A DNA stretch of 64,000 bases from Laetmonice hystrix (Eukaryota), in assembly GCA_965235115.1 (NCBI GenBank), contig OZ249436.1, positions 15,688,001 to 15,752,000 on the forward strand, in the 5' to 3' direction. The first letter of the stretch is position 1. The number at the start of each line of letters is the position of its first letter. Both the position numbers and the translations under genes were made by a program. The notes under the pieces were generated by a model. It searched no databases and had not been told where the DNA came from. It saw nothing but the letters and a program-made list of their open reading frames with translations. Below are positions 12,553 to 61,474 of this stretch, piece after piece.

Positions 12553-14040
12553 TCGACCTAACGCTTTTGCATAATGTCACGAGATTCGCTTACTTTACAG
12601 ACTTGGTGGAAAGGAATTCGATTCTTGAAAGCCTATATATTTTTGGAGGGGGTGCAATATATGACATAAGTACCATTTGTAGAAGTGATGATAATTACAA
12701 TAACATTATTAATGTTATTCGCACAGTTATGACAAGACTATTCTGGGAAGGCACTAAGGAAAGAATTAATCTTGAAGAACCTTCGTATGGCCTGACAGTG
12801 CTGAGCCATATTGGGGGGGCTGTACTGTATTATCTACAAGCACAGCCGGGTCAACCCGGCATACTATCTGGATTTATTCAGGGGGTAAGCCGCTTAGTCT
12901 CTGCAAGAATTTACTCCCTTACAGGTTGACATAGATCTGTGGGCAGCATGGAATCAAAGACCTCCGTATAGAATCAGGGTTGAGCTCGACAGGATCATGG
13001 AATTACACCTAGGCCTAATTGAAAAATCGTAATGACGGACTAATCCATATAATGATTCATCGATGAATAATTCAGCATTACAGTGTCTCGATCACATGTA
13101 AGAACGGTAATATTACAGTGTGTCGATCACATGTAAGAACGGTAATACTACAGTCCTGTGAAACTGCATTAAAGAGGCATTTTAGTAGAACGTAATAAAT
13201 ACAACAGAACTTCTATTGCTGTTTTGGTGATGTGGTCTTTCATTGAAATTGATTGATAAACAAAGGGTTTCAGCTTACCGTCAGTTTCTGCCAGAAATCA
13301 GCATTTCTCTATAAGGCCCATGCATTAGACTCAGAATCGACGGGTCACGCCTCCTTTTCGATGTGCTTTCTTGCTGTCAGAACGTGATACGCAGATTCTT
13401 CGCGCATGCTCCCTCGCTTCAAGCAAATGCCTTATTTTCTGCTTGGCATTCAGATATAACTGGAGCTTTCGTCCGACTGTAGGAAGGCAGGGGGTCCATT
13501 CTTGAAAGGAGGGGCGTAGCCCACCATGCGAGCGCCGAAGTCTTTTTCGTCCCCCGAAAAATTTGAAAATTGAACTGGCAAATATGCATTTTTCTGGCAT
13601 CTGGGACCCAAATCAAAGGTTACAGTTAGCTGAAAAAGATCTCTCCCAGGGTCCGGAAATAACGGGGGGGGGGGGGGGGGGGCGTGCATAATGGATCTAT
13701 CAGTTACTCGTAGTCATAGTTTCTAATGGCACGAGCTCATAAAGTTGTTGTTGTTGTTGTTGTTTTTATTTAGACTCACAAGCCAATACATACTACAAAA
13801 TCACATAGGACAAATATACATGTATCATCTATACACAGCTGTGGGTCAAGGCCACTTCATCCTTAGTAAAAAATGACTGTCAATCCAAGCAGCAACATCA
13901 TAATATTTAAATATACATACAACGTCATTATACAGAAAACTTAAATGAAGGTTAACAATAAAGTATTTGTTTGCGTATAGGGAGCCAAAGGTTTCGCCTC
14001 GAGTCGCGGTTCGAATGGACACAAAACTGTGGTCGCATGC

Positions 14041-15833
14041 TGTAGCAACCACTTTTGTCATTTTTACCACTTTTGTCACAGGTCACCACTTTTGTCACAA
14101 AATCCCTCACTTTTGCCGTTCTCGGGGACACCCCTTTAGACATATTTTTTTTACCAGTTAAATCAAAGCCACGACTTTTGTCATGCACCACTCTGCCCAC
14201 TTTTATCACACCAAACATTTCTCCCTAAACACCTAGTTTTCGACTCAAAAATCTCCTCCTCCTATTCCTCCTGTGCCATATCTGACTACTTGTACGATTC
14301 TGGCGTATAATGTACGATTTTTGAATCCGTTTGTACTGTGATTTACGCATTTACTATTAAGATCATAATCTCCTATTAGAGAGAGAGAGAAGAAGAAGAA
14401 GAAGAAGAAGAAGAAGAAGAAGAAGAAAAAGTGAACTTGGTCTTAGTCGACTAGATACGTTCATCCTACCGTTCGAAGATCTGGCGTCTGAGACAACACG
14501 TGATAACCCAATGGTAGCCGCCATACGGAACTATGCCACAGATCGACCCACTGACGGGGAACGGGTTGTATTGCTACATCCCTTTAGAAGAGTCGTATCG
14601 CACTTTTCTCAGCCTTGCACCCTCCCGGCTCCAAGTGGACACTTTGCGACTCATCATACTATCAGTGTTTGACCATCAGCACGTGTTGCCAGACTACGAC
14701 CGAACGTGGACCCATGCAAGCTCCTTCCGACCCATCAGCCAGTTCATGGGAGACAGACCCGAGTCTATCTAAGCGATACTTTCAGACGTGACCGTTCACT
14801 GTACATTTGACCAGTGGTTTCGTGGCTTTATATAGTGGGGAGGTCAAGCTGGACCTCCAGAGTGGTGTCTCACACAATCATATTGTTTTAGTAAGATAAA
14901 CACATTTTACAGGCGACAACCAAAGCCTTGGAGGTGTAGATCCCGTCTGGAGCACTAAAAATGGGGTGACCATCCATAGTTTCTTCCTGCAAGTTGATTT
15001 TATTAAAAGATATTAATAAAAATGATAAAATCAGGGCAACATGGACAACGAGGCACGTGACACCGACGTTCTGCATACGACAGTCGTCAAGCAGCGTCAA
15101 GATCCACATAGTTACAGTCATTTATATACAAATTAGGGTCGCACCTCCAAAACCAATTGCCTACATGGTTGTATTTTAGTGGGTTCTTTATCACAAAGCA
15201 ATATAAGTGAACACCGACTTAAACATCAGAAGGTTTCTTAGATAGAACAGTATTTCACATTAATCAAGACACCATTTCCTGCCTGTCCAAATTAAGTCAA
15301 GGTGCTGCAACAAAGCATGTCAGGTGAAACTGTTGACTGCAACTGACTGACTGACTAGACGTACAGAGTCACCGGCCAGGTGTGACAAACAAACCTGGAC
15401 AATAGAAACCACTACCTGATATTTATAGCACAAGTATTTGTTAGAGGAGTGCGTATGTACACTGGCATATCACCTACTCTATTTACCAAATTTACGCTTT
15501 TTGAAGGGTCATTGTACACCATGGTTGAAAACAGGGTGGGCAGGTCTGTACCACTATGAGTCCTGGTGGTAGCCCAATAGATTTGCTGCTGTGATACAAT
15601 TTAATAAGCTAAAACTATTATAGTATAATAGTACCTCCTCCCACACATACCTGACACCCCGGCCCCCAGCACAGCCGGTTAAAAATTATGACTAAAGTTG
15701 GGTGTCCTCAATAAGTACAAAAGTGGGCGATTTTGTGACAAAAGTGGTGACCTGTGACAAAAGTGGGCATTTTGTGTGACAAAAGTGGTGACCTGTGATA
15801 AAAGTGGTAAAAATGACAAAAGTGGTTGCTACA
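14041..15833. mobile_element. Non-autonomous Ginger-like DNA transposon (TGT...ACA, 5-bp TSD)
   Basis: ~65-bp TIRs tgtagcaaccacttttgtca... / ...tgacaaaagtggttgctaca made of ccacttttgtca subrepeats; TSD CATGC at 14036-14040 and 15834-15838; no transposase ORF. Confidence 0.85.
14378..14428. repeat. (AG)n(GAA)n microsatellite
   Basis: Direct reading. Confidence 0.95.
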
Positions 15834-17548
15834 CATGCTGGTAGGCCTATCATACACGATCAGGTGAAGGAACTACGCTTGCATTAACGCTTGCATTAAC
15901 GCTTGCATTAACGCCTAGGTCTACGGCCAGTTTTGTGTAGCCTTGTGCAAACGGGTGATAATGCCCCAGTGAATCGGTTACATATAACTGTACTTCTATG
16001 CATATATGATGCACCACCGATGATCAGGCCGGCTTCAGGTGCAGATACTCTTTCCACCGGGGTGATAATATTTCCACCGCGGTGATAATATTTCTAATAT
16101 TTCTACCGCGGTGGAAGAATTTCCACCACGGACATAATATTTCCACCGCGTTTTCATTTGAGTTTCTTGGATTCTCATATAATTTTCCGTGTTTTGTCAG
16201 ATAATATTTTGTCTCCATCGCAAGCTATTCTGCCTTCTCTATAGTTATTCCAAGTTCGTTCTCCACTATTCGCCGTAAAGGAATGTGAAATCGTCGATAT
16301 TTAAAAGTAAACACCCCCAAAAAACCTATCGCGATTTCCTTATAGGTGCCGAACTTTGGCCCATTTAACACCGGACCGAATAGAGATCTGTCCAAAGATA
16401 TCTCCTCTTTACACAACCAGTCGATCTATGTCAGCGAAACACTTTCTTGTAAAACAAACCCCAGGCAAAGATCTCCTGGGCCCCGTTGCATATTCAAGAA
16501 CCGGCCGATAAGGATCGTTAAAATGTTCAAAAACGTTGCATATTACAGATTTAGCAGTCACTAAAATCAGAGTGTTGCATAAAAAGAGGTCGCAAATAGT
16601 GGTCCTTAAAGGTGTTGCACAAAGTAGCGCTCCTTAGGGGGGGGGGGTCTCTCTGTACAATCGCTGAACCGTCTAACAGTTCCTAAAATGGTTGCTAGAG
16701 GCCTCCACTAAGGCCCACCAAAAAGGTGCGCGCTAAAGGCTGGAAGAGTGGAGTGTGTCCCATCTACCAGGGCGCCATTGCATATTTTTTCCCATTAAGG
16801 ATCACTAAAACCTTTACGATCCTTATTTTTTTGCGACTAGGTTAGCGCTCGCAATGTTAGAAGTCGCTATCTGCAACGCGCCCAATATTACCAGTCGTTA
16901 CATAATCCCCATTAGTGGTCGTAAAAGTACCTGAGAGCAGCATCTCACTGCAACACCAGCTTCTTGAGGCAGTTCCCGGCCCTGTTGCATTTTGTCCCCC
17001 TTAAGGATCACCAAAAACCTTTACGATCCTTATTTTTTTGCGACTACTAAGGGCTCTACTGACCGTGCCGTTGCATATCAGATACCCCATGTTGTCACAA
17101 GGGTTAGCGCTCGCAATGTTAGAAGTCGCTATCTGCAACGCGTCCAATATTAGCAGTCGTTACACAATCCCCATTAGTGGTCGTAAAAGTACCTGAGAGC
17201 AACACCTCACTGCGACACCAGCTTCTTGAGGCAGTTCCCTAATTAGTCGTCAGGGGGCGAAATGGGTAGACCGGACTTGGCCGTGTAGCCTATGTTGCTT
17301 CATGTCAACAATTGTCCATGTTCACCAAAGCCGGTCTTTTATGAGTCGTAAAATAACATAATAATAAAGTACTTTTAGTGTTAATTCAAAGTATTTTAAT
17401 GATTTTTTGCTAAAGGCTGACATTATATTTTATTATATTTTATTATATATTTCCCCAATTGCCACACATAATGTCTAAGCCAGATGTCACAGTTTATACA
17501 GAAAGCTTGAATTCATGTAGGAATACCCCTTATCTCCTACACAAAGTC

Positions 17549-17961
17549 TATATAGCCTGTATCGAAGGATAGATCGTGTTCCTGTCTGTTACGAGCAATC
17601 GCCAGTAATATTTACCCTTAATTACGGCCAGTTTGGCTCAGTCCCGTTTTTTTTATTTAATGTTTTTTAAATGTATTTATCTATTCTCTATAGCCTGTAT
17701 CGAAGGATAGATCGTGTTCCTGTCTGTTACGAGCAATTGCCAGTAATATTTACCCTTAATTACGGCCAGTTTGGCTCAGTCCCGTTTTTTTTTATTTAAT
17801 GTTTTTTAAATGTATTTATCTATTCTATATAACCTGTATCGAAGGATAGATCGTGTTCCTGTCTGTTACGAGCAATCGCCAGTAATATTTACCCTTAATT
17901 ACGGCCAGTTTGGCTCAGTCCCGTTTTTTTTATTTAATGTTTTTTAAATGTATTTATCTAT
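17549..17961. repeat. Three tandem copies of a ~139-bp unit
   Basis: cctgtatcgaaggatagatcgtgttcc... at ~17556, ~17694 and ~17833. Confidence 0.95.
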
Positions 17962-18831
17962 TTAATGTTTGTCAAAACCCCACAATAGCGGGCACTCCTA
18001 TTAAGACTACTCCGCATTGTGACCACTTTTTGTCAGTCCCAAATGGCCTTCCAACCCTTCACTCCGGCTCTAAACTATTGTCGCGCAAGGTGCATGTGTA
18101 ACAACCCCACTTTGAAATTACGCACTTAAACATTGTTCAAAGTCCGTTAAGAATTGGGTCCACGTCAACGCACTTTCAGTTTTCTTTTTTAAAGTGCGTT
18201 GAAGTGGACCCGAATCTTAACGCACTTTGAAAAAGAAATCAAAGTGCGTTGAGGTGGTTCAACAATTAACGCATTTTGAAAATATTTTTTAAAGTGCGCA
18301 ATTTTTTTTGTTTGTTTGGTTTGTTATAGATCTGTCAATCAAGTTGAGACAACAACGGCACAATGACTGGTTATGACACTGATCACCGTAACGCGCGTTA
18401 CGCCGATCCGAGATGAAGGAAGGCAAGTCTCGCGTCAACTAAAACTAGGTGTAGTTCAAGCAGTTCCATTTCTCTGCATTGACAACAAAGAGAACCCATA
18501 TTTATGTTGTATCATAGTTTTATATTGAAGGATGGCCTATAAAGGCGCAAATGTTAAAAAAGGTGTAGGCCTAGCCCTAGGTACAATTCCCTTTAGGCCC
18601 TAAGGCTTGTGCAAAATCAAACAAAAAATCAAACAAGTTTGAAATGATAAGTCTAAGTATTCACCGTCTATTATTTCACCAACTTAAATTGGTGTTAAAT
18701 TGGCGTTACGGGTATCATTGCCGCATCCATTTTCTCTTAATTTAAGCCCTGCATGCTCGGACCCTGAAATAAGACAAACGGCAGTCTACGCTGTTATCAT
18801 GATATTTAGACGTTGTCCTGATGTTGTTGAT

Positions 18832-19139
18832 GTACGGAAGCCCGTTGATGCCACAATGTGAAAATATTTCATATAGCCGCCGCGACATAATAACTGGCGG
18901 CCCCGACATAATTATGTGGCGGCCGCGACATAATAACTGGCGGCCGCGACATAATAACTGGCGGCCGCGACATAATAACTGGCGGCCGCGACATAATAAC
19001 TGGCGGCCGCGACATAATAACTGGCGGCCGCGAGTTATTATGTCGCGGCCGCCACATAATTATGTCGCGGCCGCCACATAATTATGTCGCGGCGGCTATA
19101 TGAAATATTTTCACATTGTGGCATTAACGGGCTTCCGTA
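18832..19139. mobile_element. Fold-back MITE with internal 21-bp repeats
   Basis: Long TIR tacggaagcccgttgatgccacaatgtgaaaatatttcatatagccgccgcgacataat and its reverse complement; inner (ataataactggcggccgcgac)n switches orientation near 19030. Confidence 0.9.
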
Positions 19140-19365
19140 TTGACGCACCGTAACCCTTGCAACTTGGACAAAAACACGCGAAGCTAGTATCGAGATCCTC
19201 CATTTATGATCAGCGTAACGCGCGTTACGGTGATCAGTGTCTAACCAGTGACTCACACATAGGCTATACGATCCCTGGAATAGCTTTCCTTTCACAACCA
19301 TCTGTGTGCTGGCCAGCTTTATCCTTGTTAGCTCCATGTTATCCTTTGTTATCAGTGAAAAAACC

Positions 19366-19524
19366 AAGGGCGGATTCAGGATTTTTGTAGGGGGGGGCGT
19401 GGGGTGGAGGGGGGCGTGGGGTGGAGGGGGCGTGGAGTCTGAGTGGTAAACTGTGCGCTACGCAAAGTATGGGTGCAAGCCATTTTTATGGGGGGTGCGC
19501 CCCCACCCCCTCGATCCGCCCCTG
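19366..19524. mobile_element. Small hAT-like MITE
   Basis: aagggcggat... / ...atccgcccctg termini with a G-rich interior. Confidence 0.55.
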
Positions 19525-20539
19525 CAAACGATTTTAACGGCGGTATTTTTGCTATAAACTAATTTCTCAGCTTCTCCCCCATTCTACTATAAACTGACCA
19601 TCCTTTATGAGTTAATTCAGTATCAGTATCTGGACTTGCATTATACATGCTACAAAGAGTTCCGACCCATAAATACAACGTATACCCCATTATGTCACTC
19701 GTGTAGGCTCCAGGTAGATGAGACACTCCACTCTTCCAGCCTTTAGCGCGCACCTTTTAGGTGGGCCTTATCGGAGGCCTCTAGCAACCATTTTAGCAAC
19801 TGTTAGGCGGTTTAGCAATCGTACAGAGAGACCTCGCTTAAGGAGCGCTACTTTGTGCAACGCCTATAAGGACCACTATTTGTGACCTCTTTCTTATGCA
19901 ACACTCTGATTTTAGTGACTGCTAAATCTGTGCAACACTTTCGATCATTTTAACAATCCTTATCGGCTGGTTCTATTATTATTTCCCTGCTCAACAACTG
20001 CAAGATCACGGTGCAGGCTGTGTGCTCTTGACACCGCAGCTGCTGGTGGCTAACGTACTTTGGTTGTTTCCACTGCAGTCCCTGACTTTGTGTGGGAGGG
20101 ATATTCCTATACATGAATTCCAACTTTCTGTATTAAAACTGTGACATGTGGCTTGGACATTTGTGTGGCAATTGGGGGGAAAGTGAAAAACAATACGTAC
20201 CTGGAGGGGTTCTAGTAATCCACGTTAGTTGTTGACCGATATAGACAAAATGACCGACTTTCTCTCACAGGTAAATTTGACAGCTGTGATCGTAAGGTGT
20301 CACTGCTGCCTATGTGTCAAGACACACAAAACATTTCTCTTATATTTAGGGGAGGGATCACCTACCAAAACGGTCATATCTCTGGCAGTTTTCAACAGAT
20401 CTTAATGAAAATAGTTGTGCTTAAAGAAGGTAGGATGATAAGCCAAATTTATGAAAAGTTTCTCCTGTGACATGACTTTTTCGCGTCATGACGTCATTCA
20501 CCTATTCTAGATAGGACCTTCGTACTTATAGGTCTGTGT

Positions 20540-20612
20540 GTCTCAATAGCTGAGTGGGTAACACAACCGAACGAAAAGCTGGACATCGTGGGTTCGAATC
20601 CCACTAACGGTT
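20540..20612 (+). pseudogene. tRNA-derived segment (Pol III A/B boxes), not a credible tRNA gene
   Basis: A-box-like tagctgagtgg and B-box ggttcgaatcc in a gtggg/cccac T-arm; acceptor and anticodon stems do not pair well. Confidence 0.55.
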
Positions 20613-20734
20613 GGAATTTTTTTCTGAATTTTTTTTCGTAACTACAAATTATTCTGAAAACCATCCCCACAGCTGACCGCTAACCCAGGGAGAATACTCC
20701 TTCCAATGAGTTCCCATACACTGTGGGGTTTAGC

Positions 20735-21047
20735 CCAATCTAATTAAAATTAGATCTTAGTTATTTCGCATGCGCTACATACTAGGCTACTAACTAGGAT
20801 CTAACGGCATCCCGTATGGGGTCACCTCAGGCTGACCTTTGACCCAGATTCAAGTGTGCCGTTGAAAATGCCTAGAGCGCACACCGAAGATTTCGTAGGC
20901 GGCTCGCTGATTGGCTGAATCCCGAGGTCAACCTGAGGTGACCCCTAATGGAATGTCCTTAGATCTAGGTATGGAGCGCAGCCAGCACCGACACAGCCGA
21001 GAGAGACGCGGAATACCAAGATCTAATTTTAATTAGGCCTAGATTGG
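20735..21047. mobile_element. MITE with ~8-bp TSD (hAT/P-like)
   Basis: TIR ccaatctaattaaaattagatctt / aagatctaattttaatta[ggccta]gattgg; TSD ggtttagc (boundary ambiguous, 6-10 bp); inner IR ggggtcacctcagg/cctgaggtgacccc. Confidence 0.8.
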
Positions 21048-22705
21048 GGTTTAGCCCAATTTGGTATAGATTTGTTGATATAAGTTACGTGACCTACAAG
21101 TTTCACTATTTAAAGGGCTCTGACCACACAACTGAATGCAACTAAAATATGTGGGCTGGTTCCTAATTAGTACATTTTTTACCAATATTTTACTGATAAC
21201 TTTTGACCTTCGTAAGGACTGGGTCACACGTCACATCTCACATAAAATTAATGTACGATTTTGAAGTAGATCTCTTCCAATTATCCTGGTCAAATTTGAC
21301 ATAATGGTTCCACAATGCGCTCTCCATATCAATCTTTTCATTTCGTGTAGCCTATGGGTCAACAGGCTTACAAAAATGTCTGTCTGTATTTTTATGTGTT
21401 ATTTTACAACTCATAAAAGACCGGCTGTGACGAACATGGACAATTGTTGACATAAAGCAACATACAAGGTCCAGTCCGGTCTACCCATTCCGCCCCCTGA
21501 CGACTAATTAGGGAACCTTCCTCAAGAAGCTGGTGTCGCAGTGAGGTGTTGCTCTCAGGTACTTTTACGACCACTAATGGGGATTGTGTAACGACTGCTA
21601 ATATTGGGCGCGTTGCAGATAGCGACTTCTAACATTGCGAGCGCTAACCCTTGTGACAACATGGGGTATCTGATATGCAACGGCACGGTCAGTAGGGCCC
21701 TTAGTAGTCGCAAAAAATTGAGGATCGTAAAGGTCTTAGTGATCCTTAAGGGAAAAAAATATGCAACGGGGCCCTGGCGTGGATTAAGGGGGCTTCCCAA
21801 CATAATCTCTAGGTGTTTTCTAAGCAGGGCCGAGCTGTGCTTCCATCGGGCCTGCAGCTTGTCGGGCGAATCAGGAGGTGCGCCTTAACCATCATACCAG
21901 GGGATGCATCAGTAGACGTCAATCTCGTCTTTCTCGGGTAGCTATTACTGGTCTTCTTTCAATTCTCTGGAGTCAGAGGAAATGACTCAAGGACGCCATC
22001 AGAGTCAATGTGGTCGTTACACTAAAACCTCGCGCCGCCCCCTAATTAAACGTCAGAAACACATGCCATCGTATTGCCCATCAAGGCGTGCCTGTCTCTA
22101 GTGTTGTTGTTATGACGACCCCTATTATCCGGACCGACTCTCCAAGGTAACAGTCTTGTTATATCGCGAGTAGAGCCGACTCCTTAACCCTCTTTGCTTT
22201 CTTGACCACGTTCTGTACTCCATTACAATCTCAGTTAGAAAGCTCAGTCACTCTCTATTCGCTTCCTTCTTCCATTTCCTGTTCAGGGCGCTCTCGGTTG
22301 CCGAGACCATTATCTGAACAGACCCCTTCAGACCCGGCACTGGTCCGCTGACACCGAAGTGCATGCTGGGTGAATGTTGAGTGTCAAGTACCCTTGGTCA
22401 CTGACTTCTCCACGAAATGATGAGTGCTACTGCATTGAGTTAACAACATGGTGGCGGCGAATTCTCGTCCACCTTATAATGGACGCATTGTAATGCTTCC
22501 CAAGTTGCGAATAGATAACGCCTGAATGTTTCCGAAAAGTAGAAGTAATGTGGGAGCCAAGTTAGAGTTACGATAAATTTGAATGTAGGCCTATGGTCAG
22601 TCGACCTAATATTACCTTCAAGAAAAGTCCGATTTGAAGCCATTAAATTCCTCCACATGAGTGATTATTATCAGCGTATTTGTGTACGCTTTGCGTTCAA
22701 CTCAT

Positions 22706-27626: not shown

Positions 27627-30600
27627 CCGAAAGCTGAAACCCTACCCAGCATGTATGGACTTGTCTAAGCTGTCTCGTATAGAAGCAGACTATTAGGGGC
27701 GGACCATTTGATACGGTGGGGGAGGGGCTGCGGGTTTTTTGAAAAAAATCATCTGTTCACCAAACGCAGAGGGGGGAAGGCCTCGGAAGCGAGTAGGCTG
27801 GGCGCCCCCCTTAAATTTTCCAAAGATCCATCAAGAGAGGCATAGGAACCGGGGGCAATATCAAAAGTGAGGGGCTGAAGTGTCTTTCCGCTCCCCCAAC
27901 ACCATGCCCCTAAATTCATATAGGCCTCCCTGGGACGGCCAGATCACGCAGGGCTCTTCATTTCAATCAGAATTTGATCCCCAGATGCCGGGCAATACAG
28001 TTTTGGGCCTTCCAAATTTATGTTTTGTCCGGGGAGCCAACTTTAACATAATCTAAAGGGAGGTCCCCTTGACCCCCGCTGACCAAAAAAAGCTATACTA
28101 GGCGCCTCAGGAAGTCAGTTTATCAACGATTTCAGTTACTGTTTCGCTGGTGGCCCAGCCGTTGTTTATCAAGGGATCAACAGATTAAATGAATATGAAC
28201 CAATGAAGTGAACCTTGATTGAAGTCCTGTTATAATCCAGCCGGAATCAGTGGGTGATTGGACCCCGGCTCGTATCTCATGGCTAGACTGACAATCTAAT
28301 GGACGAAGCTCGTCCTCTTTCATTTCCCGGACAATCCGCTCTGGGAGTAAACCAGAGAAAGGGTGACATCGGGTCGGGAATATACCGTATATTGATGACG
28401 TTTTGGTTAGGGTCGTATACCTGACTGAGATGACTAAGGATTGTATACATGAACAAACAGATTGAGAATTGAGAATTCTGCCAGGTTCGTCCCGAATTGT
28501 TTGGAATGACGCGAGTATTGATATCCACCGACAGTGATTATAGAAGAGACCCGGATGTTAGCTCTCGTCTGGAATTAGTGCACGTATATGGGCAAGCAAT
28601 ACACCGCTTCTCGTAAACAAAGTCATAATAGGTCGAACTAAAAAGTTTGACAAAATACACGCCTGAATTAAGTATCACTACAATAAAGATATACAGTAAT
28701 TATATTACATAGTTGATGATTTGTCCGCCAGCCAATGGGAATCCACTCTATGTAATAAGATCACTATCTGGTATTTTGCTGTCCATTAGTTGCATTATGG
28801 ACCTTGTGTATTGTAAAGATTTGACTTTGATCTTCTTAGCGTATTCCCACGAAAGGGCACACGAGTATGCCTTGGCAGTAGGGATCTCTGTCATCTCCCT
28901 AATTGTGCATTCTGCCTCTTCAGATTCGACCCCTTGGAGGGAGTTCGTCTATCACAGGGGAGACCCCGTGCAATTATAGCAACGAAGAAGCAAATGAGCC
29001 AAAGTTCCCCGCAAACAAGACATGTAACTTGTAACGGCCTTTAGCACTTTACCCAACTGCAATATGGTTCCTGGTTCTTGATTCATTTGGAGTCCCACTA
29101 GATTGGTTTTAAACTGCCAGAACTTGGGGGTCTTATTATACTATTATAATGAAGATAAAACGGTCCAGATTAAATTCACCCATTATAGTATAATGGTACA
29201 GTTGTATAATTTATACTTATATAATTATAATCATATATCAATACTCCACTGGCTTTAGCGCATGGCTCAGATCTTTTTCTATAGGATGACCAGATTTGTA
29301 AAAATAATGAACAAAAAGGAATTAAGGAACATGTGGCGTTCAAGCAATATGGACGACTACCCACGACTAGCCCTAGTCGCACGACTGAACTGATCGCAGG
29401 GAATCGCAGGTCCTAGTGGGACCTAGGCATTAGAAGACCTGCCTTATTTTGTTTTTTTAAATAAGACAGTGCGAGACAGAATTCTCTGTGTGGGAGAGCG
29501 TTTCCTTGAAGTTTGTCGATACGATATGGAATAGACTGGCAATAAATGTGAATTAATATTATAATATTGATGTAGGGGAAAGACATATTTCCTTAATATA
29601 AAATTAATCAACGAGAAATACAGAAGGCATAAGCTTCATAGATGGTTCATTGATACCTATAGGCCTATCTGATGTTCATTATGTGCATCTAAACGAAATG
29701 ATTTTAACGATGTTAATTGTAACATGGCTGACTGGCGTATACTGTTCTCTTTGATATCAAACCTGAGAGAAGTTACTATATGTCTACACACCCATGAAAG
29801 GACGAGATACAATTATACACCAGCCCCGACTGTTCGGGACATCCCGTAGTCGTATGGATACCTCCTTCCTATTGCGAACAGTGAAATCGCGAACGAAGTA
29901 ATCAGGGACTATTGTCCATACGGGTCCACGCCTCGGAACATGCAGAGGACGTACGTATAGGCATTGAACGTTACAAAATGATTATGTATATCCAGACAAT
30001 GATTTGGAATGATCTTCCAGACATATGCGCGCACACTTCTATATAATCACATTCGTATCGAAATGCCATATCATTAAATCCAATGTGAATAATGATGGTG
30101 ATTGTAGGAGTATGGCGAATATTGTACACATCTGTGTATGTAACGAGGACGACGTGTATTGACCGAGTTGTTTCCCTGCTCCATCAGTAACGTTGTGTGA
30201 TTGTCGTAGAAATGTGCCGATAGACAACACGACCAACCAGGACAGTAACCTCGCCTGCTTCATTAAAACTCAGCCGCCCAGTATTGAATGTGCAAACCTG
30301 TCTCCTGAAATGGAACCGTCAAGGGCTGGACCGTGGGAGAGGAAATTAGATCGTCATCGAATAACTTCTCAATCCGATATTCACAGTTCGACGACCCTGC
30401 CGGTGGAGTTGTCATCAGTGATAAATCACGGTTTTACACTGGTCAAAGCAAGTATCTCAATAAAAACAAATGAAATATAGACATTCCTTAAAGAAGTTCA
30501 GCAAAATTAATTTTGCCGTGAATTTTAGTTAGAAGTTGGTCGGACGGTTAAGACGTACACCGGAATGCAATTAGTTCAGGTTGCTATGATATCTGATTTC

Positions 30601-41192: not shown

Positions 41193-43528
41193 CGATTCCT
41201 GTCCTTCCGACAATGTTTGCCGACTGGCATTTGACCTTGCCAGGTTTTGTGTCGTATTACATTAGGCCTAGTTTGTTGTACACATATAGGCCTACTGTAT
41301 ATCAAAAGGCGTAGAGTGAGATGAAACAAAAAGGCCTGAATTCATAAACGGTCTAGTCTTACATGATTCTTATACATTCAGCTCTTTAGGGGACAAGGTT
41401 TTAGTTTGTGTGCAAGAAGGTCCCAACTCCGAGCAAGACATGTCTTTATTCTTAATATATTTGACACCATGAGTTCAACTCACCGTTGAACTCACCGTAT
41501 AGAAAAAATTGTCTCGTGGAGTTTGGCCCTTATTGAATTCCAAAAATGGGTCTAATTTATGTGTGTAAAAAGTTCGGCAAACAGTTATAGAGGACAAAAG
41601 AGGAGTCGAACGTGAGATGGAAGCGTTATTTCCAGAAAGGCCGAAAACCAGAAAAACGAATTTCGTGTCAATATGTACTCTTCCAAAGGAGTCTTTGAAA
41701 ACCCACAATTCCGACCTTGTCTTTGCTTAGCCATCTCTTCTGTACTAGTTCAATGACATGCACCACATCCAATGTCACCCGTCCGTCCACACACGCTAAG
41801 AGAGAATTATTGCTTACTTGTACACCAGATTTTAACAAGCCCCTTGGGACGATTAAAATTTCTTTTGTGAATTACACAGGTGAGACTAACCATGTAGCCT
41901 ACGTTGGATAAACACAGCAAATGATCTAATCACGCTTTATGAAATCTGACGGTTCTACGTTAATCTTGGAGAGATTAAGTAACAGATGTGAATGTCATAT
42001 ACTTTATAGATCGAGGATTAGGTACTGTAAAATTGAACCTGCATAGATTCTAAAATTAATTGTCGTAGTTTAGTATTTCTAATGGGCCTGGGTCAACCCA
42101 TCTCTAACGAGTGAGCGATAATAAACCGACACCACGGGCCTAGGCCAGTAAGAGACTTTGGCTCCCTATATACAAGAAATTAGTTTCTACCAGATTTTAA
42201 GCTAGATGTACACAAATAGAAGGAGCTGGTTGCCGAAAATTTTCCCTGACTACAATTTTCCTGGTCGATGCATGAGGCATTGTCTGAAGTCTTGCCCTGG
42301 TCTGAAGTCTTGCCCTGCGCCGTGACTCGATTCACAATATTGGTGGATGCGGGACTACGACATGACAAACCCTACTGGTGGTTTTACTGATTGTGCAACG
42401 ACAGGCGTATTAGTAACGTGATCATGTTTCTGGGTGTTCCTCGGGGTGACATCGTGGTTAACAACCCGAGAAACTAATCCCGAAATGACCCCAAGCGCTC
42501 CCTAGAGATCACATTACTGGCGCAGCCACAACCTCTGTCGCCTTCATAAAAAGGCACGCAACTCTTCATGAAATCTATGAATGAAGCGGCTCCTTCAAAA
42601 GGTCGCCACCATTCAAGGGTTGGGGATGTCCTATGCTCTGAGTATTTTGGTACAAATAGATAGTGAATGGATGCCGGGGATCTTTTGTGATGTCTACAAT
42701 TCGACATCATGTAGATGCACTTGTTCGGGTCCTATTTCATAACGTGGCGAAAGTTATTCTGAAGTGGAGAATGGTCCGAATATAAGTTCACCCGATTAAA
42801 TTATCATTGTGCATTGCAACACAGCAAGGAGTGGTTCGATATGGTGGGGGTGGGGGTGGGGGGGGGGGGGGGTGGGTGTGTGTGTGTGTGTGTGTGGGGG
42901 GGGTTAACGGAAATAATTGAAACATATCGGCATGAGTCCTGAAAGGCTTACACCGGGAATTTTACAGTGAGAAGGTATTAAACATTATCATCAAAATGAT
43001 ATAATCAAATGAAACAAAAAGTACAACAAAGGCTTCGGTTGGCACTTCTTTGCTTGCTTCCTTTTAACTGTACCAGTAACCCCAAGCCTTCTCTTAAATA
43101 GGTTAACAGTCTGATTGATAATTCATTTAAATTCCAGCGTGGCTTTAGTTTCGCGAATCTTGCCAACTTATCTTAATGCATTGTCCTGTTGGTAAGGCAG
43201 AATTGTTGTCCAGGGCTTTGGCACGCGTTCGCGCCTCCCAAAATACAGTTATACCTAGTTACGTTCGAATTGATTTACTAACGTTGCAGGACCCCGGGGG
43301 CAGGCGGGCTGCCACCAAACAACACAAATATTTTACACGAGGGCACGGCGGCCCCTGCCTGTGGCCTGCTCGTGGCCTGGCTGGATGAGTTCAGGACCTC
43401 GGATGTCTGGGCCCTCCTGTCTGCAGCCCGGCACTCTACATATTCTGGGCTCCTCATATACTCGATCCTGATCAGTCTGAATTAGCATGCACGAAGTTCC
43501 CGATCTAAAAAAAGCAGAGCGGACTTAA

Positions 43529-48163: not shown

Positions 48164-48199
<36 letters not shown>

Positions 48200-48238
48200 C
48201 TACTAGTAGTAGTAGTAGTAGTAGTAGTCGTAGTAGTA
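48164..48238. repeat. (TAG)n microsatellite
   Basis: Direct reading. Confidence 0.95.
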
Positions 48239-49662
48239 AACGTTGGGTAAAATCCACTAATGTTACTATCCCTATGTACTGCAATCGACATAATAGATCT
48301 CATATAAGACCGTGCGGAGGGTATAAATAGAACCAAACGGTCGTGCTTCAGTCCTCAACATTCTGTCGACACGAAGTGAACGGACGTCCCACCTCCACCC
48401 CGAAGTCTTCGTATTTGTATTATGTGAAATATACGTATTCCATCTAAGCTTATTTGGCCACATTCGCTGGGGTTTCCCAGCTGGATAGGGTTATGGGGAG
48501 GGTTACTCGGGGTCAGCGTCGCTGCCCAGGGGGGGGGGGGGAATAGGGTTGATTTCGGAGGGCATTCCGAGCTTTTTCTTTGGGGCCCATGTTGTCTTCA
48601 CCTAATTAGGCTAATCAGTATTCTATCAGACTCCTATGAGTTTTGACATAACTAGGCCTATATAACGACTTATGAAGGAGTAGTGTGTTATTATGTGGTG
48701 TAATTCATTATTCAACGTCATTGTAGAGTCCCTTCATAATTATGATAAAGGATCTGGTATAGAGTCCTCTTATAGGGGATCGACGGGTTACAATGCAAAT
48801 AAAATGTAACCTACAATACCATCCTCCTCTCCGAGCTTTGACTTCATAAAAATGATTTACAATAACGCTTATTTTAACATAAAGAACATAGCTATTAAAG
48901 ATACACAAACGCAATCTAATTTTCCACTCACATTTTGCCGTGTTCCTTAATGCATAGACCTTTTCATCCTTGACGCTATTTTACCTTGGAAGTCTATTCG
49001 CCAGTTATAGATACAATTTCAAAGGGTGCCATCTAGGTCTAACGGAATCATTCGCTACGAATGAAGTTGTTCTGTTTGTATTCTACCTCAAGCACAGAAC
49101 CGGCTGCATAGTGTATGATGGGAGTTTATTGCGTCAGCCAAAACGAGGCAGCTTTTAAATCTAGGTCACACGTGAACGGCATGGCCGTGGGGTATTCCCT
49201 GTACACCTATTGGCAAGCATGTCGCGTACAATATCAGGCCCCCTACTGGCGAAATCTGCAAAATCGTAACGACTTCTAAATCATAACAGAGCGAAATCCA
49301 TGGGGTTTAGGTGACAACATTGAGAAATGGTAGCATATACGGCAAGTTCTTGGACAACCGACAACCTCGGGGTTACCGAACTGCTGCAACCGAACCTCGT
49401 ACAACCAGTCATTCTCCAACAGACAATTGTATCCACAAACACGAGTTTCGGACCAAGTCCGCCCGTGGTTAACGTTGTTCTCAAAGTCGGATGTAATTGG
49501 GCTCTGTGGATGTCAGGCTGATTCCTACCGTGGGGAATCAGGCCACTTGGATATGGACGAAGTTAATCTTTCCATGGTCAGAACTGATCCGAAAGTACCA
49601 TTGGTACTGTGTTTTAATTACGCTGGAGATTAGCGGGGTCCTTGTTCTTACGGTACCTTTCA

Positions 49663-51895: not shown

Positions 51896-52350
51896 AGTCG
51901 CATGCTAAAAACACGTTATGGAGGATTTCCGGCAATTATCCATCATGACCGTGTACTAGGGATCCACGTAAATAATCCTACCACAGCATTTTGTCCTTCG
52001 ACGTGTTTTCGCTGCGTATGCAGCACAAGTAGGTTCTATAAAGCAAAACGTAGGCCTATAGATTTCTCCCGATAGCACATCTCCCGCCATAATTTGGTAG
52101 ACAACCTCCCATCAACCCGTGTAATTGCGTACTGCGTCACATCCTGTGTGTGCACTCTCTGCATGTGCTTAGTCACGTGCTTCGCTTAGTTGTAAACAAT
52201 TCAGCAGTTGCATTTTCTATGCCTACTCGATCGTTCGACATCAGAATGCCACCCAAAAAATATTTTACGAAATCAGAGAAGCGGGCAAGGAAAGAAAGAT
52301 ACAGAAGTTGGAAAAGACAGCAAGTCAATCTCGGAAACCAAGGTAAGGGG
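51896..52350 (+). mobile_element. Longer copy of a Kolobok-like TTAA element (same family as 62699-63227); right end not defined
   Basis: TTAA|agtcgcatgcta start; ~390 bp closely similar to 62699-63080; continues into the short ORF MPPKKYFTKSEKRARKERYRSWKRQQVNLG. Confidence 0.7.
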
Positions 52351-53692: not shown

Positions 53693-55286
53693 TTAAGGGC
53701 AAGTGCTAGTGTGAGGCCAAATTAAAAAAAAAATTGCAGATAAACAGAATATGTTCTCCTCTTTCAAAATTCAGCAAAAAAGTTTTTTGGTTAAGAGCTT
53801 TTGAAATTGGTATGTTCGTCATGTTAATAATGTTCAAAGGTATACGTCTTTCTTTCTTTTTTTGACCGCTTCTATTTGTCATAACACCGTTATGACAAAC
53901 AGAAGTGGTAAAATAAGTTTGACTTTGAACATTTTTGCTCATTTACACCACAGTAAAAATAGTCAATTTTTTTTACCACTTCTATTTCAAGTTGTCAGAA
54001 GTGGTTAAAAAAAGAAAAAAGTCTGCCTTTGAACATTTTCACTGTGGTGTAAATGAGTAAAAGCTTTCAAAAGCAAAAAACACTAACCCGGTGAGGTATA
54101 AGTATCGCTTCGCGTGTAGTATGGGAAATTATATCTGTTTCACGCCGATAGGGTTTAGGTGTTCATCGTTAAAGCACTCAGAGAGTATCTCTGGTTCAAA
54201 TGACTCCAAACTGCAGACATGGACTGTAAAGCTAAGGCCTTAGACTACATCAATAAATAGAAACCCACAGAAATGAGGAAGTTACCGTATTGCTTACTCA
54301 CTCCATCCATCCAGGTGCTCACTCCATCCAGGAAAACAATTTGTTAGTAGTCGTACTGTTACGAACCCATTGCCACTGCAGCAATTTCCCCAAACTTGGG
54401 TCAATGTCTGGTATTGCCGAGTTTTCCACAACTCGAGTCAGTTTATTCATCTATATTAATGAAACCAATCGATTGGCAAGACGGCACATGAGGCTGTGAC
54501 CTCCTTAATTAAAAAAATAGACAAATTGCGGTGAGTGACTCTGAGCTTCTCGTAAAGATTCGAAAATGCTTAAGAAATTTAGAATGGGTATACGATCTCG
54601 GTATCCACAAAATCTATGCCAGTTTGAATGGTCTGAATGGTAAGACTTGCGATTCGGATCCAACTCGTATTGTGACCTTGCCTCCGGCTTTCTATTACAA
54701 TGATTGCAGTACTTGACATGAGTTCCACTCGTGCCCATCAGCTTGCGATATGGCATGCAGTATACTCAATAATTCGTGTAGTTCGCCTTTGGCCTCCAGC
54801 GGCTTGGTTCAAAAGCACAAACGATGTTGGTTTTAATGAGGAGATGGTCCTGTGCTCGAAGCGTATGCTGTATTAATGGTGGGTGCTGCAATCAATCAGT
54901 CAGTCACAGCCAAGAGGGATTATACGGTCGTTTCAAGTAGATGTTTCCCATGGCTTCATAATCTTAACATGCATGGCATAGCCTATTAAATGGTGAACTT
55001 CCAATATAGTTTGTTCCATTTCTTCCCGTTGTCAAACTGTAAGAACCCCCCCCCCCCCCCCCGGATGATCTCTCATTTTTATCACCTTTTATAGATACAA
55101 TTTTATATATCTTTCTAACGTGACATTCCACCTTTTCTCTCTCTATCTTAGAAATACTGTTGTGAACAGCACGTCTGTTATTCAGAGACCCTGTTTTCAT
55201 GTTCAACTAAATTGCGTCCGTTCTTTTCGTTTTCTTAATGCCGTGTCAAATATCATATTAAGATTCCCCCTCGCTTTACAGCTGAC

Positions 55287-55374
55287 GCCCACTCACTATC
55301 AAACGTTACATTAAGGCCCACTCACTATCAAACGTTACATTGAGGCCCACTCACTATCAAACGTTACACTGAGG
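55287..55374. repeat. 29-bp unit in three tandem copies
   Basis: gcccactcactatcaaacgttaca recurs three times. Confidence 0.9.
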
Positions 55375-55417
55375 ATGTATTATAACGAGTTCATTTCGGG
55401 TGTCAGTCCGGGACCTT

Positions 55418-57545
55418 CAGTAAGTAGTATACCAGGCCTACATAAATGAGTGTTGAGGTCAGTGTCCTCGCCTCAGTAAGTAGTATACCAGGCCTACATA
55501 AATGAGTGTTGAGGTCAGTGTCCTCGCCTCAGTAAGTAGTATACCAGGCCTACATAAATGAGTGTTGAGGTCAGTGTCCTCGCCTCAGTAAGTAGTATAC
55601 CAGGCCTACATAAATGAGTGTTGAGGTCAGTGTCCTCGCCTCAGTAAGTAGTATACCAGGCCTACATAAATGAGTGTTGAGGTCAGTGTCCTCGCCTCAG
55701 TAAGTAGTATACCAGGCCTACATAAATGAGTGTTGAGGTCAGTGTCCTCGCCCCAGTAAGTAGTATACCAGGCCTACATAAATGAGTGTTGAGGTCAGTG
55801 TCCTCGCCCCAGTAAGTAGTATACCAGGCCTACATAAATGAGTGTTGAGGTCAGTGTCCTCGCCTCAGTAAGTAGTATACCAGGCCTACATAAATGAGTG
55901 TTGAGGTCAGTGTCCTCGCCCCAGTAAGTAGTATACCAGGCCTACATAAATGAGTGTTGAGGTCAGTGTCCTCGCCCCAGTAAGTAGTATACCAGGCCTA
56001 CATAAATGAGTGTTGAGGTCAGTGTCCTCGCCCCAGTAAGTAGTATACCAGGCCTACATAAATGAGTGTTGAGGTCAGTGTCCTCGCCCCAGTAAGTAGT
56101 ATACCAGGCCTACATAAATGAGTGTTGAGGTCAGTGTCCTCGCCCCAGTAAGTAGTATACCAGGCCTACATAAATGAGTGTTGAGGTCAGTGTCCTCGCC
56201 CCAGTAAGTAGTATACCAGGCCTACATAAATGAGTGTTGAGGTCAGTGTCCTCGCCTCAGTAAGTAGTATACCAGGCCTACATAAATGAGTGTTGAGGTC
56301 AGTGTCCTCGCCCCAGTAAGTAGTATACCAGGCCTACATAAATGAGTGTTGAGGTCAGTGTCCTCGCCCCAGTAAGTAGTATACCAGGCCTACATAAATG
56401 AGTGTTGAGGTCAGTGTCCTCGCCCCAGTAAGTAGTATACCAGGCCTACATAAATGAGTGTTGAGGTCAGTGTCCTCGCCTCAGTAAGTAGTATACCAGG
56501 CCTACATAAATGAGTGTTGAGGTCAGTGTCCTCGCCTCAGTAAGTAGTATACCAGGCCTACATAAATGAGTGTTGAGGTCAGTGTCCTCGCCCCAGTAAG
56601 TAGTATACCAGGCCTACATAAATGAGTGTTGAGGTCAGTGTCCTCGCCCCAGTAAGTAGTATACCAGGCCTACATAAATGAGTGTTGAGGTCAGTGTCCT
56701 CGCCCCAGTAAGTAGTATACCAGGCCTACATAAATGAGTGTTGAGGTCAGTGTCCTCGCCTCAGTAAGTAGTATACCAGGCCTACATAAATGAGTGTTGA
56801 GGTCAGTGTCCTCGCCCCAGTAAGTAGTATACCAGGCCTACATAAATGAGTGTTGAGGTCAGTGTCCTCGCCCCAGTAAGTAGTATACCAGGCCTACATA
56901 AATGAGTGTTGAGGTCAGTGTCCTCGCCCCAGTAAGTAGTATACCAGGCCTACATAAATGAGTGTTGAGGTCAGTGTCCTCGCCTCAGTAAGTAGTATAC
57001 CAGGCCTACATAAATGAGTGTTGAGGTCAGTGTCCTCGCCTCAGTAAGTAGTATACCAGGCCTACATAAATGAGTGTTGAGGTCAGTGTCCTCGCCCCAG
57101 TAAGTAGTATACCAGGCCTACATAAATGAGTGTTGAGGTCAGTGTCCTCGCCTCAGTAAGTAGTATACTAGGCCTACATAAATGAGTGTTGAGGTTAGTG
57201 TCCTCGCCTCAGGAAGTAGTATACCAGGCCTACATAAATGTGTGTTGAGGTCAGTGTCCTCGCCTCAGTAAGTAGTATACTAGGCCTACATAAATGAGTG
57301 TTGAGGTCAGTGTCCTCGCCTCAGTAAGTAGTATACCAGGCCTACATAAATGAGTGTTGAGGTCAGTGTCCTCGCCTCAGTAAGTAGTATACCAGGCCTA
57401 CATAAATGAGTGTTGAGGTCAGTGTCCTCGCCTCAGTAAGTAGTATACTAGGCCTACATAAATGAGTGTTGAGGTTAGTGTCCTCGCCTCAGGAAGTAGT
57501 ATACCAGGCCTACATAAATGTGTGTTGAGGTCAGTGTCCTCGCCT
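55418..57545. repeat. 56-bp tandem array, ~38 near-identical units
   Basis: cagtaagtagtataccaggcctacataaatgagtgttgaggtcagtgtcctcgcc(t/c) repeated head-to-tail without spacers. Confidence 0.99.
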
Positions 57546-58570: not shown

Positions 58571-61474
58571 TGAGATCCCCGCCCATTTCGTCGGATGTGC
58601 ACGACCTTTATAAAGTGTGTATCATTTCGTCGGATGTGCACGACCTTTATAAAGTGAGTGTACATATCCAGCTGAAGACGCCGAATCAACATGTCCCCAG
58701 GCCCAGCCTCCTACTCCTCATTCACCGTATCGCCCACAGCTGCACTCACCTCTCGTCGCCTGTTCATTACATCATAACGTACCGCTGCAGTGTTTTGTCT
58801 ATCCGATCTCCGCCAGGTGGCGTGTCATGCGACCCTGTGACGAGCGACATCGTGCGGCATATTGTGGAATGTCAATACATTTTAGGGCGAGTTTCGAGGT
58901 TTGCATTTTCTAGGTATAGAGTCTGGTTCCTTTGCGCGGATTACGAAGAAAGTAGCTTGATGGGAAATAGGCTTAACATGTAGGCCTATCTTTTGACCAT
59001 TGGCATTGCTTTCAGCTACGGCACGAAATATAGGACTACATGTTCATTTTTCCTAATGAAGTGCTCAATTTAAGCATACTTATCCTTCATTAGCTGTGTC
59101 CTAACTCTTGACATTTTGTCAATCTAATGACTACTCTTGCACGTGGCAGGCAGTGAGTATTAGGTAAGATGATCGGTTCATGTAAGGTCAGCGGTGGCTC
59201 CGCCTGGCGATCCACACCGTCGGTCCGGCACTGGCAGCCTGCTGTCATCTTGACCAATCACTGCCAGGGTCTGAGCTGGGTTGTCGGTAAAACTACGCTG
59301 TCATCTGACTGACCCGTGCCCACGACGTAACGTCACACCGCTCCGACTATCGGACTGGTGTTTATCAGACTGAACGTATACAAATCGACCTGTGCAGCTG
59401 ATAATAACCGATTTGTTCCATGAGCCATCTAAGTGAAAATGTCTGCCACTGACACAGATTGTCCGAGAAATATTGAGACTGTTTCCTGGCACATATTGAT
59501 AATGCGGATATTGATCGCAAGAAGCCGAGAGACTTCACGGGTGGGGTTTGAGCAGGGAGAGTGGGCGGCCAAAAATGCGATTTATAGCGTTGTAGGTTCT
59601 CTCGGCTGAATTATTACTATGAGCTTATTCTTTTCCGTCTAGAAAAGTTAGGAAAGCCATAATCGTTGCAAATCCGCTCCTGCTCGTCCAGGGCCTCGCA
59701 CATCCATTTTCATGGAATCGGGTTGTTGAGTCGATGAAAGGGGTTCAATTTACAGAAAGGTAGATTTCACAAGCACATTTCGTAAAGTAACAAAGAAACC
59801 ACAGGTTACCTATTGGAGTTATTGTAAAATCTCATTATACCCCTTTCAAATACATCGTTAAAGTATATAGATCTATATCGAGATGTCATAACGTCTTTTT
59901 ATGGCGTCATAAAGATTTCATTTTTGTACCAGTTGGTACAGTAGGCCTACCAGGAGAAGCTAATAGTAAGATCATTCATGCCATGGCCCTTATAGAGGGC
60001 TATAATTTTTCACATTCATTTGACCTCTGATTCTTGTCCTTAGCCAAAGCTGGCTCAAGGGTCAAAATATGATAAATTCGTTAATCCTCTGCTAAATTTT
60101 GAAGTATTGCAGGGGGGATCTCTATAGAAGAAGTCAGTAACGCCGTTTTAAAGCGATCTGACATATTTTCACTGAGTCACATGCATGACCGCAAAGTTGT
60201 TCAATTTCCCATTTCCCAGTAAGGAGGGTGTACCTTTGCTATTTTTCCGAATATCTGAAAGAACCTTAGTAAATACATTCGCCTAATTGACATGTTTAAC
60301 AAGCTGTGGCAAGGATTACGTCAGGTTACGTAATTGAATATTTTATGGAGTTTTCAACACCTCAGAATAACGATGACATGTTTACGAATGGAAAGGGAAT
60401 CTGTAGACTGTATAAGTGTATTGGTTAACATGCCAAACCCATAACGGGAAGGACAAATGCGAATGTGTGCAGACATTTTTTTTTCAGATCAGTAATTCTA
60501 TCAAAGTTCATTTCATATAAAACAGAGGATATTTTATGGTTTAACTACTGACGTAATTTAAAAACGTCATGATGATGTCAAACACTCTGTATGCTGTCAC
60601 AGCAAGGTGAGTCGACCAGGGTGTACTGATAATGAATCATGTAGTCAGCGATCCTGATGCCAGGTGGAACACTGCTGGGATAGACTCGTGTAATTAAACC
60701 TAATTAAACCTGGGGAAATGGGATTCGGGGTTGCCCAGCAACACCTTGCCACTAGTTTTTATTTCTAGTTTTACTCGCTTTAGATATAATGTGATTGTTC
60801 TATCTACGTCGGGAAATTCAACGCGGGTAAAATTTAAATTATTCATTAGGATTAGGCCCCTACACAACATGTATAAGCTGATTTCATTTCTGGGCGTTAC
60901 ACTTTAACTAAGCACATACAAACTGATACCGGGTATAATCTGATCAGGCCTTAATGGACTCTTGCAATACGAAAGAAGTTTAAATCTGTTGTGTTTAATT
61001 AATCAGAAACAAAGGATGTCCATGCACACCCACCCATACAGACAGGTAGCCAGTTACGTATTTGCGTGGGAGCTATACCTTCTTGCCATGGTTTCATAAC
61101 ATCTCTTGCGTACGAGTGGGCCTATATTCACCATTGATTGAGTTGGCGTTTAAACTGGTCATCTGCCGCACTCTTTGATACCTCGTTACGTATGGCCTAT
61201 TAATAGAGATGGTCGGTTCATCTTCACAATAACAAACAAAGAACGGACCACAGTAAGAAGGCGTATGGCCTCTCTATACGCCTACCTCTGGGGGTGTACG
61301 ATTAACTTGTTGGTTCAAACTCCTGCCCCCAATAATGATAATTATGTTTACACTTATGTATTGATTATACAAGCCAGGATAACTGCATCAGTTCCCCAAG
61401 GTCTGCAAAGAATAGATTGTACCTGTTTCTGGACATTAAGGCACCTCGGGCGTCATATTGGGTTCTGTAGAACG

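Follow-up and report, generated by a model that had tools for sequence, protein, structure and literature searches.

A 64,000-nt stretch of the genome of Laetmonice hystrix (contig OZ249436.1, positions 15,688,001-15,752,000, assembly GCA_965235115.1), hereafter the window, was analysed for the palindrome TAGGCCTA. By exact-match count the window contains 15 copies, 12 of them outside tandem arrays and three in an array of 56-bp units (Table 1). The 12 non-array copies are those listed in the original prediction, which regarded the motif as the product of GGCCTA insertion at TA; all are exact matches with flanks that show no kinship to one another, and T precedes AGGCCTA in every non-array case (12/12). 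The prediction expected about one copy by chance, in agreement with 100 dinucleotide shuffles of the window, which gave a mean of 0.67 and a maximum of 3, none of the 100 reaching 15. With the 56-bp array masked, 12 copies remain, whereas Markov models predict 0.66-0.88 (orders 0-3), 1.5 (order 4), 3.1 (order 5) and 7.0 (order 6); the estimates at the top orders derive largely from TAGGCCTA itself. When all arrays detected by Tandem Repeats Finder (TRF) were masked, no other 8-mer of the window was as strongly enriched as TAGGCCTA (12 versus 0.72 expected, 16.8-fold).

The excess extends over the whole assembly (627.5 Mb in 35 contigs), which contains 168,757 copies of TAGGCCTA against 3,469 copies of the reversed word, the latter containing a CpG. 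Twenty random 10-kb stretches from eight contigs carried 67 copies, with at least one copy in 18 of the 20, and the window is representative of its genome in this respect. In 214 kb comprising sample and window, with tandem repeats masked by TRF, 58 copies were found where 4.1 were expected (14-fold). Each of the 15 other WWGGCCWW words occurred 2-9 times in the same 214 kb, and TAGGCCTA ranked first among all 256 palindromic 8-mers, above AT-only words. The copies are also clustered: gaps shorter than 100 bp made up 5 of 42, versus 2.7% expected under a Poisson distribution, and gaps shorter than 300 bp made up 11 of 42, versus 7.8%. Hot zones include about eight copies within 700 bp (L022:2400-3100) and five within a stretch of approximately 70 bp in a flank in L052, beside a miniature inverted-repeat transposable element (MITE) insertion, where the tandem form TAGGCCTAGGCCTAGGCCTA is included. 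Flanks were unique at 68 of 82 sites, and approximately 360 kb yielded 130 distinct flank contexts. TAGGCCTA is not an assembly artefact, as the read-derived X1 contigs, which may share their source sample with the assembly, match the window without a single difference at sites 22586 and 29660. Among the matches listed for read-derived Logan contigs (three runs, one sample) over positions 13000-32999, none showed a GGCCTA indel; these matches were mostly repeats and are uninformative on polymorphism.

GGCC is the four-letter insert at each of the 130 distinct sites, irrespective of the flank. Footprints of hAT, Transib/RAG and Mutator transposons are likewise small palindromic insertions at former transposon sites, but the opening of a hairpin copies the flank so that the letters vary from site to site, whereas here they are always GGCC and the duplicated target is 2 bp. 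Because GGCC is constant while the flanks vary, flank-templated scars are excluded, and so is a hairpin footprint of the hAT/Transib type, in which the insert would be an inverted copy of the adjacent flank. Such constancy fits retained transposon ends rather than flank-templated repair. The reconstructed target shows a weak symmetric preference for R-TA-Y (GTAC 2.8-fold, ATAC/GTAT 1.6-fold, TTAA 0.46-fold and CTAG 0.22-fold), and its two sides are independent, with G..C at 16 sites versus 16.6 expected. Near-variants, which the original prediction described as frequent, are so in the sample for TAGGGCCTA/TAGGCCCTA (7 versus 0.73, 9.5-fold), while TAGGCTA/TAGCCTA is enriched only twofold. The tandem forms TAGGCCTAGGCCTA(GGCCTA) and TAGGCCTAGGCCTAGGCCTA are both present.

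The polarity of the change was read from repeats that host the motif. Site 21034 lies in a MITE, termed MITE 'A', whose two inverted repeats differ by exactly GGCCTA at a TA (left, CAATCTAATTAAAA; right on the other strand, CAATCTAGGCCTAATTAAAA). The window copy reads ..AATTAGGCCTAGATTG, while 10 of 10 other copies compared read ..AATTAGATTG; thus the single TA of TTAGATTG, seen in all ten copies and in the left inverted repeat, is replaced by TA-x-TA in the window (TTAGGCCTAGATTG). With 1,073 first-look candidates, and with identities of 99-100% in the 40 matches scored, the family looks like the product of a recent burst. As ten of ten copies and the left inverted repeat are without the six letters, in a host repeat that is 99-100% identical, the gain at 21034 is recent and derived; the motif is not an ancestral sequence deleted from the other copies, in accordance with the prediction. 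The 10-bp target duplication of MITE 'A' is of a Mutator-like length, and the element itself sits inside another repeat, copies of which are 100% identical over 197 bp.

All genomic MITE 'A' copies with 1-10 extra letters in the last 22 nt were surveyed (n = 86). GGCCTA was present at the fourth TA in one of them, the window copy, and at the first TA as an exact TAGGCCTA in 72 (GGAATACC to GGAATAGGCCTACC), with six more carrying one point change. The other extras were TA at the TA used in the window (two copies), TCTA (one) and AAT (one), together with a further 3 letters in one subfamily copy, and three matches were chance coincidences of the flank. The 78 copies with the insertion at the first TA form a subfamily that most simply descends from one scarred source copy. 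Since GGCCTA occurs at two different TAs of the same element, two independent gains of the same letters took place, and these represent two of approximately six or seven insertion events in the 22-nt stretch.

Further gains were seen in other repeats. The insertion at L018:1196 is missing from three of three paralogues, and an 865-bp satellite provides another case (L017 versus L013). At L038:647, 12 of 18 aligned paralogues keep the first TA alone, three read TCGATCTA and three have other gaps; the gain there is of 10 bp in the alignment examined, GGCCTA plus TGTA, which form a single 10-letter gap. The original prediction rested on two comparisons within the window, of which that in MITE 'A' is a clean 6-bp gain at TA. 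The other, between site 52051 and the paralogue at 62735-62976, shows the net 6 bp, but the gap lands on TA only if a C-to-G change at position -1 is also assumed. Among 6-bp indels between paralogues of at least 85% identity, 5 of 76 distinct strings were of the TAGGCC type and reduce to two independent events; the 76 strings are not all independent, several being from satellite copies or being shifted versions of one event, and the independent events are too few for a spectrum. The process that gains GGCCTA is real but is not the dominant source of indels, contrary to the expectation that this insertion would prevail. It is directly shown that the six letters are gained at a TA and in which direction the change went, that the gain has recurred at different TAs, and that the motif is spread over the genome, is clustered and is passed on within repeats. 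To this extent the interpretation in the original prediction is supported.

Table 1. Copies of TAGGCCTA and related features in the window (positions are those of the window)
Feature	Position	Strand	Observation
TAGGCCTA copy	13010..13017	.	Exact match; without covering paralogue in window or sample
TAGGCCTA copy, 8 nt past the end of a dispersed repeat ending ...GGTTGCTACA	15842..15849	.	Motif beside the end in 0/29 other repeat copies, and therefore outside that repeat
TAGGCCTA inherited within a dispersed repeat	18566..18573	.	16/16 genomic flank-pattern matches carry the motif
MITE 'A', 311 bp including the insertion, host of site 21034	20736..21046	+	23-nt inverted repeats starting CAATCTAATTAAAATTAGATCTT; 10-bp target duplication GGGTTTAGCC
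TAGGCCTA, private derived 6-bp insertion at TA in the right inverted repeat of MITE 'A'	21034..21041	.	
TAGGCCTA copy in single-copy DNA	22586..22593	.	X1 contig spans 21773-22770, 0 differences
TAGGCCTA copy in single-copy DNA	29660..29667	.	X1 contig spans 29404-32999, 0 differences
TAGGCCTA pair at 41263 and 41287, spaced by 24 bp	41263..41294	.	Exact match; instance of clustering
TAGGCCTA copy	48653..48660	.	Exact match
TAGGCCTA copy	52051..52058	.	Net +6 bp versus two paralogues (62735-62976, L010); gap not clean on TA
Three TAGGCCTA copies (57169, 57281, 57449) in a 56-bp minisatellite	57169..57456	.	C-to-T from CAGGCCTA of the unit
TAGGCCTA copy	58981..58988	.	Exact match
TAGGCCTA copy	59942..59949	.	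Exact match
Motif-less paralogue of 51931-52178	62735..62976	+	91% identity, 242 versus 248 bp

We consider it probable, with room left for other origins, that TAGGCCTA is the excision footprint of TA-targeting and TA-duplicating elements of the Tc1/mariner/pogo kind with 5'-GG...CC-3' ends. Insertion of such an element would produce TA-[GG...CC]-TA. If excision cuts two nucleotides inside the element, as the analogy with Tc1/mariner elements suggests, GG would stay on each flank as a 3' overhang. The two GG overhangs do not pair, and end-joining that fills both and ligates them would yield TA-GG-CC-TA, a net gain of 6 bp at the former single TA. Occasional loss or gain of a base would produce TAGGCTA or TAGGGCCTA, and re-insertion into either TA of the scar, followed by excision, would produce TAGGCCTAGGCCTA and local clusters. 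Scars inside mobile elements or satellites would be copied along with them and so inflate the count. Judged at the sequence level, the motif looks like a footprint in that the TA is duplicated and its inner letters match the termini of TA-flanked elements present in the genome (see below); on this reading, GG-ended elements would be the makers of the scars.

Footprints of the Tc1/mariner type (Tc1/Tc3, Sleeping Beauty, ZB, Minos) are alike in having a duplicated TA around a few nucleotides of each transposon end. The retained letters here are GG/CC, whereas the described Tc1-type ends usually begin CA...TG. The scars described here also differ in being read from genome sequence and not from an excision assay, and in their unusual scale, 168,757 copies of what is the commonest palindromic 8-mer. 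According to an excerpt of PMC2170065, cleavage of Tc1/mariner donors falls 2-3 nt within the element at its 5' ends but precisely on the boundary at its 3' ends, and footprints of 2-4 bp are given in an excerpt of PMC7913693, which also reports a flank preference around TA for ZB (ATATATAT), comparable to R-TA-Y here. The pogo superfamily (pogo, Tigger, Passer) is also comparable, being marked by TA target duplication, short inverted repeats and a transposase of the DDE_1 type, and a 5.95-kb GGG...CCC element with a DDE_1-like open reading frame (ORF), the match being sub-threshold, is present in this genome; Passer leaves 0-4 bp at the excision site (excerpt of PMC9976928). ISL2EU/PIF-Harbinger (PHIS) elements are alike in that their inverted repeats often start with G or GG and AT-rich targets are preferred; ISL2EU came into consideration through its 2-bp duplication. 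They were ruled out by their target duplications, which an excerpt of PMC4482050 gives, together with those likenesses, as AT (ISL2EU), TWA (PIF), ANT, CWG or TNA, whereas TA borders the elements found here, with no repetition of the 3-nt flanks. Among the papers listed in a literature search that did not extend to supplements, no description of this motif or of such scars accumulating genome-wide was found.

Full elements bounded by TA-GG...CC-TA, for which the original prediction had proposed a search, do occur. A scan of approximately 360 kb for such elements with matching inverted ends was noisy and gave two convincing ones, L007 and L009. The element at L007:478-1653 (1,176 bp, ends GGGTCAAATCACCATGAGTGGGCC) has 13 near-full-length copies that are 91-98% identical and have their borders at TAs, and its terminal inverted repeats (TIRs) gave 49 hits genome-wide. 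TA directly precedes 16 of 20 ends examined in this family, and since no repeat extends over three flanking nucleotides, the target duplication measures 2 bp. One member of the family is inserted in the TA of a scar, reading TAGGCC-TA followed by GGGTC. The second element, at L009:2109-4683 (ends GGGGCATTCCACAGTA), has five copies of approximately 2.5 kb. The inner letters of the motif, GG plus CC, are the first and last two letters of both of these TA-flanked GGG...CCC families. One family is linked by sequence to a putative pogo-like transposase remnant: a pair of perfect L007-type TIRs lies 5.95 kb apart at C11:21235722-21241672, and an ORF of 119 aa in the central 2.1 kb between them, L085:1631-1990(-), gave a weak match to the start of DDE_1 (E 0.0076, 16.3 bits). 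Used as a query, this ORF gave matches in its own genome that overlap strong DDE_1 hits (E 1.5e-10 to 2e-7). The genome contains at least 150 DDE_1 and at least 57 DDE_3 matches, many of them intact multi-copy ORFs, among them pogo-like ones of 441, 544 and 563 aa and Tc1-like ones of 355 aa. L018:3250-4115 was dropped as a TA-flanked element because its inverted repeat continues past the TA, and no element with GGCC...GGCC ends was found in the sample searched.

Several results weigh against an origin by excision of these elements. The DDE_1 match of the L085 ORF is under the Pfam cut-off of 22 and covers the first third of the domain alone, and the remainder of the 2.1 kb sampled from the 5.95-kb element gave no domain match. 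ORFs of the L007 and L009 copies yielded no Pfam domain, and no DNA transposase was found among 80 ORFs of at least 150 aa in the approximately 360 kb sampled; those 80 include a long interspersed nuclear element and host genes, with Pfam hits including cadherin, laminin and a rhodopsin-type receptor, which mark the DNA as animal. The GG-ended families are small, approximately 25 (L007) and 5 (L009) copies versus approximately 1.7e5 motifs. The base at -1 of 16 L007-family ends was T in 8, A in 5, C in 3 and G in none, whereas G at -1 or C at +1 was found in 85 of 230 scar half-sites (~37%). The chance of no G among 16 ends at the scar rate is 0.63^16, approximately 6e-4, which makes the L007 family, the one family for which this mismatch of target preference was tested, an unlikely main source. 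Scars of the one-sided form (TAGGTA/TACCTA) show no enrichment in the sample. TAGGGCCCTA, which a 3-nt cut of GGG termini would be expected to leave, is not among the TA-N6-TA words seen at least 4 times in the sample, so that the excision model needs a strict 2-nt cut. At no locus was one copy seen to be occupied by an element while another carried TAGGCCTA, no haplotype-level or whole-genome comparison having been made, and the link between element and scar is therefore circumstantial. Finally, some copies arose by point substitution and many were inherited in repeats, so that independent events must be considerably fewer than copies of TAGGCCTA.

Some of these points also speak for another origin, in which the GG-ended elements would be bystanders and the motif would be made by a sequence-specific insertion process targeted to TA other than transposon excision. 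This might be an endonuclease or domesticated transposase that cuts at TA and adds GGCC in a templated or stereotyped manner, or it might be abortive transposition. The product is unusually uniform, with TAGGCCTA enriched 14-fold, one-base variants 2- to 9.5-fold and one-sided forms not at all; the flank preference of the sampled GG-ended family (L007) is unlike that of the motif, and such families are tiny beside 168,757 motifs. At 52051, the scarred copy also differs in the base before the TA, which is G there, giving the impression that more than six letters were written. We nevertheless judge such a process unlikely. Elements of the form TA-GG...CC-TA exist in the genome, and literature matches to the motif string were, among the matches listed, primers and oligonucleotides. 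We know of no TA-targeted process that writes GGCC. The established chemistry of Tc1/mariner elements predicts a TA duplication plus two end nucleotides per side (excerpt of PMC2170065), and R-TA-Y resembles the A-TA-T preference of Tc1-type elements (excerpt of PMC7913693). The specific version in which an undescribed break-and-fill process, such as a domesticated or highly active TA-cutting nuclease with repair that is always GGCC, writes the six letters is likewise unlikely. Were it true, it would be a sequence-specific insertional mutator that has converted approximately 0.4% of the TA dinucleotides of the genome and that also seeds (GGCCTA)n.

It is distinctly unlikely that the excess arose mainly by hitch-hiking, that is, by amplification of a few ancient occurrences in transposable elements and satellites without ongoing insertion. 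Part of the excess does have this origin, and the original prediction had named membership of longer shared repeats as a result that would count against a mutational process. At 18566 the motif is carried by all copies of the repeat, an empty TA being found in 0 of 16 genomic matches to the flank pattern even with 0-8 free letters allowed. One insertion is common to the 78 copies of the MITE 'A' subfamily, and one element family carries at least eight conserved TAGGCCTA in approximately 300 bp. The 865-bp satellite has one TAGGCCTA per monomer, with some monomers being without the motif or reading TAGACCTA; this satellite occupies no less than 70 kb where contig 1 begins (G000:C1:19565-90405) and is also found on other contigs (L017, L013, L038, L039). 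Membership of repeats does not cover the whole excess, as there are 130 distinct flank contexts in approximately 360 kb, and with tandem repeats masked the motif is still enriched 14-fold and still the commonest 8-mer palindrome. Polarised independent gains occurred at different TAs of the young MITE 'A' and in other repeats, and hitch-hiking leaves unexplained why all founding events put the same six letters at a TA.

Slippage or microsatellite-like expansion of GGCCTA, or biased point mutation towards the palindrome, with no break and repair, is very improbable as the general cause. Tandem TAGGCCTAGGCCTA(GGCCTA) forms are indeed present, and substitution has created the motif in two places. 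One is the minisatellite at 55417-57545 (38 copies of 56 bp, 98% match), whose unit contains CAGGCCTA, one C-to-T change from TAGGCCTA; counted per array copy, 34 aligned units read CAGGCCTA and two read TAGGCCTA. The other is in L008, where TAGGCCTA arose from TAGGCGTA. Slippage requires a pre-existing unit, yet the polarised cases begin at a bare TA, and single units vastly exceed tandem ones in the sample; it accounts at most for the tandem forms. Least probable of all is a functional site under selection, such as a protein-binding palindrome. Its perfect symmetry, high enrichment and clustering speak for such a role; against it, the motif turns up as recent insertions in satellites, in the inverted repeats of MITEs and in further repeats, is eroded by ordinary point changes (6 of 78 MITE subfamily copies altered) and has a context without conservation.

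If TAGGCCTA is an excision footprint, as favoured here, it belongs to a type of scar already known, with GG/CC as a new form and on an unusual scale, and a single excision scar would outnumber every other palindromic 8-mer in an animal genome of 627 Mb. The copies would then constitute a countable fossil record of cut-and-paste movement, far more of it than the surviving copies of the elements suggest, and a natural read-out of germline end-joining on non-complementary 3' overhangs. As a sequence-specific source of 6-bp indels, they could also confound analyses that rely on k-mers, motif discovery or indel spectra, and the scars themselves would be amplifiable inside MITEs and satellites. Two other TA-bounded palindromes are moderately enriched in L001-L020 plus the window, TACATGTA (22 versus 6.7, 3.3-fold) and TAGATCTA (10 versus 2.8, 3.6-fold), which elements with CA...TG and GA...TC ends may have left as scars.

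Other features were noted in the window and the sample. A 1.8-kb element at 14043-15831 has 30-nt perfect inverted ends (GCAACCACTTTTGTCATTTTTACCACTTTT) and internal tandem repeats of 19-41 bp, and its end of approximately 155 bp is a dispersed repeat with 395 first-look candidates. A MITE of approximately 590 bp at 53106-53697, with ends AGGGAAATGTGAGTG...CCCT, has TTAA on both flanks, a piggyBac-like target; a first look gave 7,846 candidates, with identities of 95-97% in 39 scored copies. When the 14.3 kb at 41000-55300 were searched against their own genome, almost all matches came from one 590-bp MITE and none was informative on sites 41263, 41287 and 48653. Long homopolymer runs of G and of C are frequent in the window, GGGGGGGG and CCCCCCCC occurring 62 and 50 times, respectively, as overlapping 8-mers, which is 10.6-fold over expectation with arrays masked. 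The open frame of 268 aa at 31050-31853 (+) matches the rhodopsin family (7tm_1, E 3.8e-25), has no internal TAGGCCTA and is probably a single-exon part of a G protein-coupled receptor gene. In the sample, a 696-aa open frame at L016:5042-7129 (-) contains Mab-21 nucleotidyltransferase and Mab-21_C domains, as in a cGAS/Mab21-like gene.

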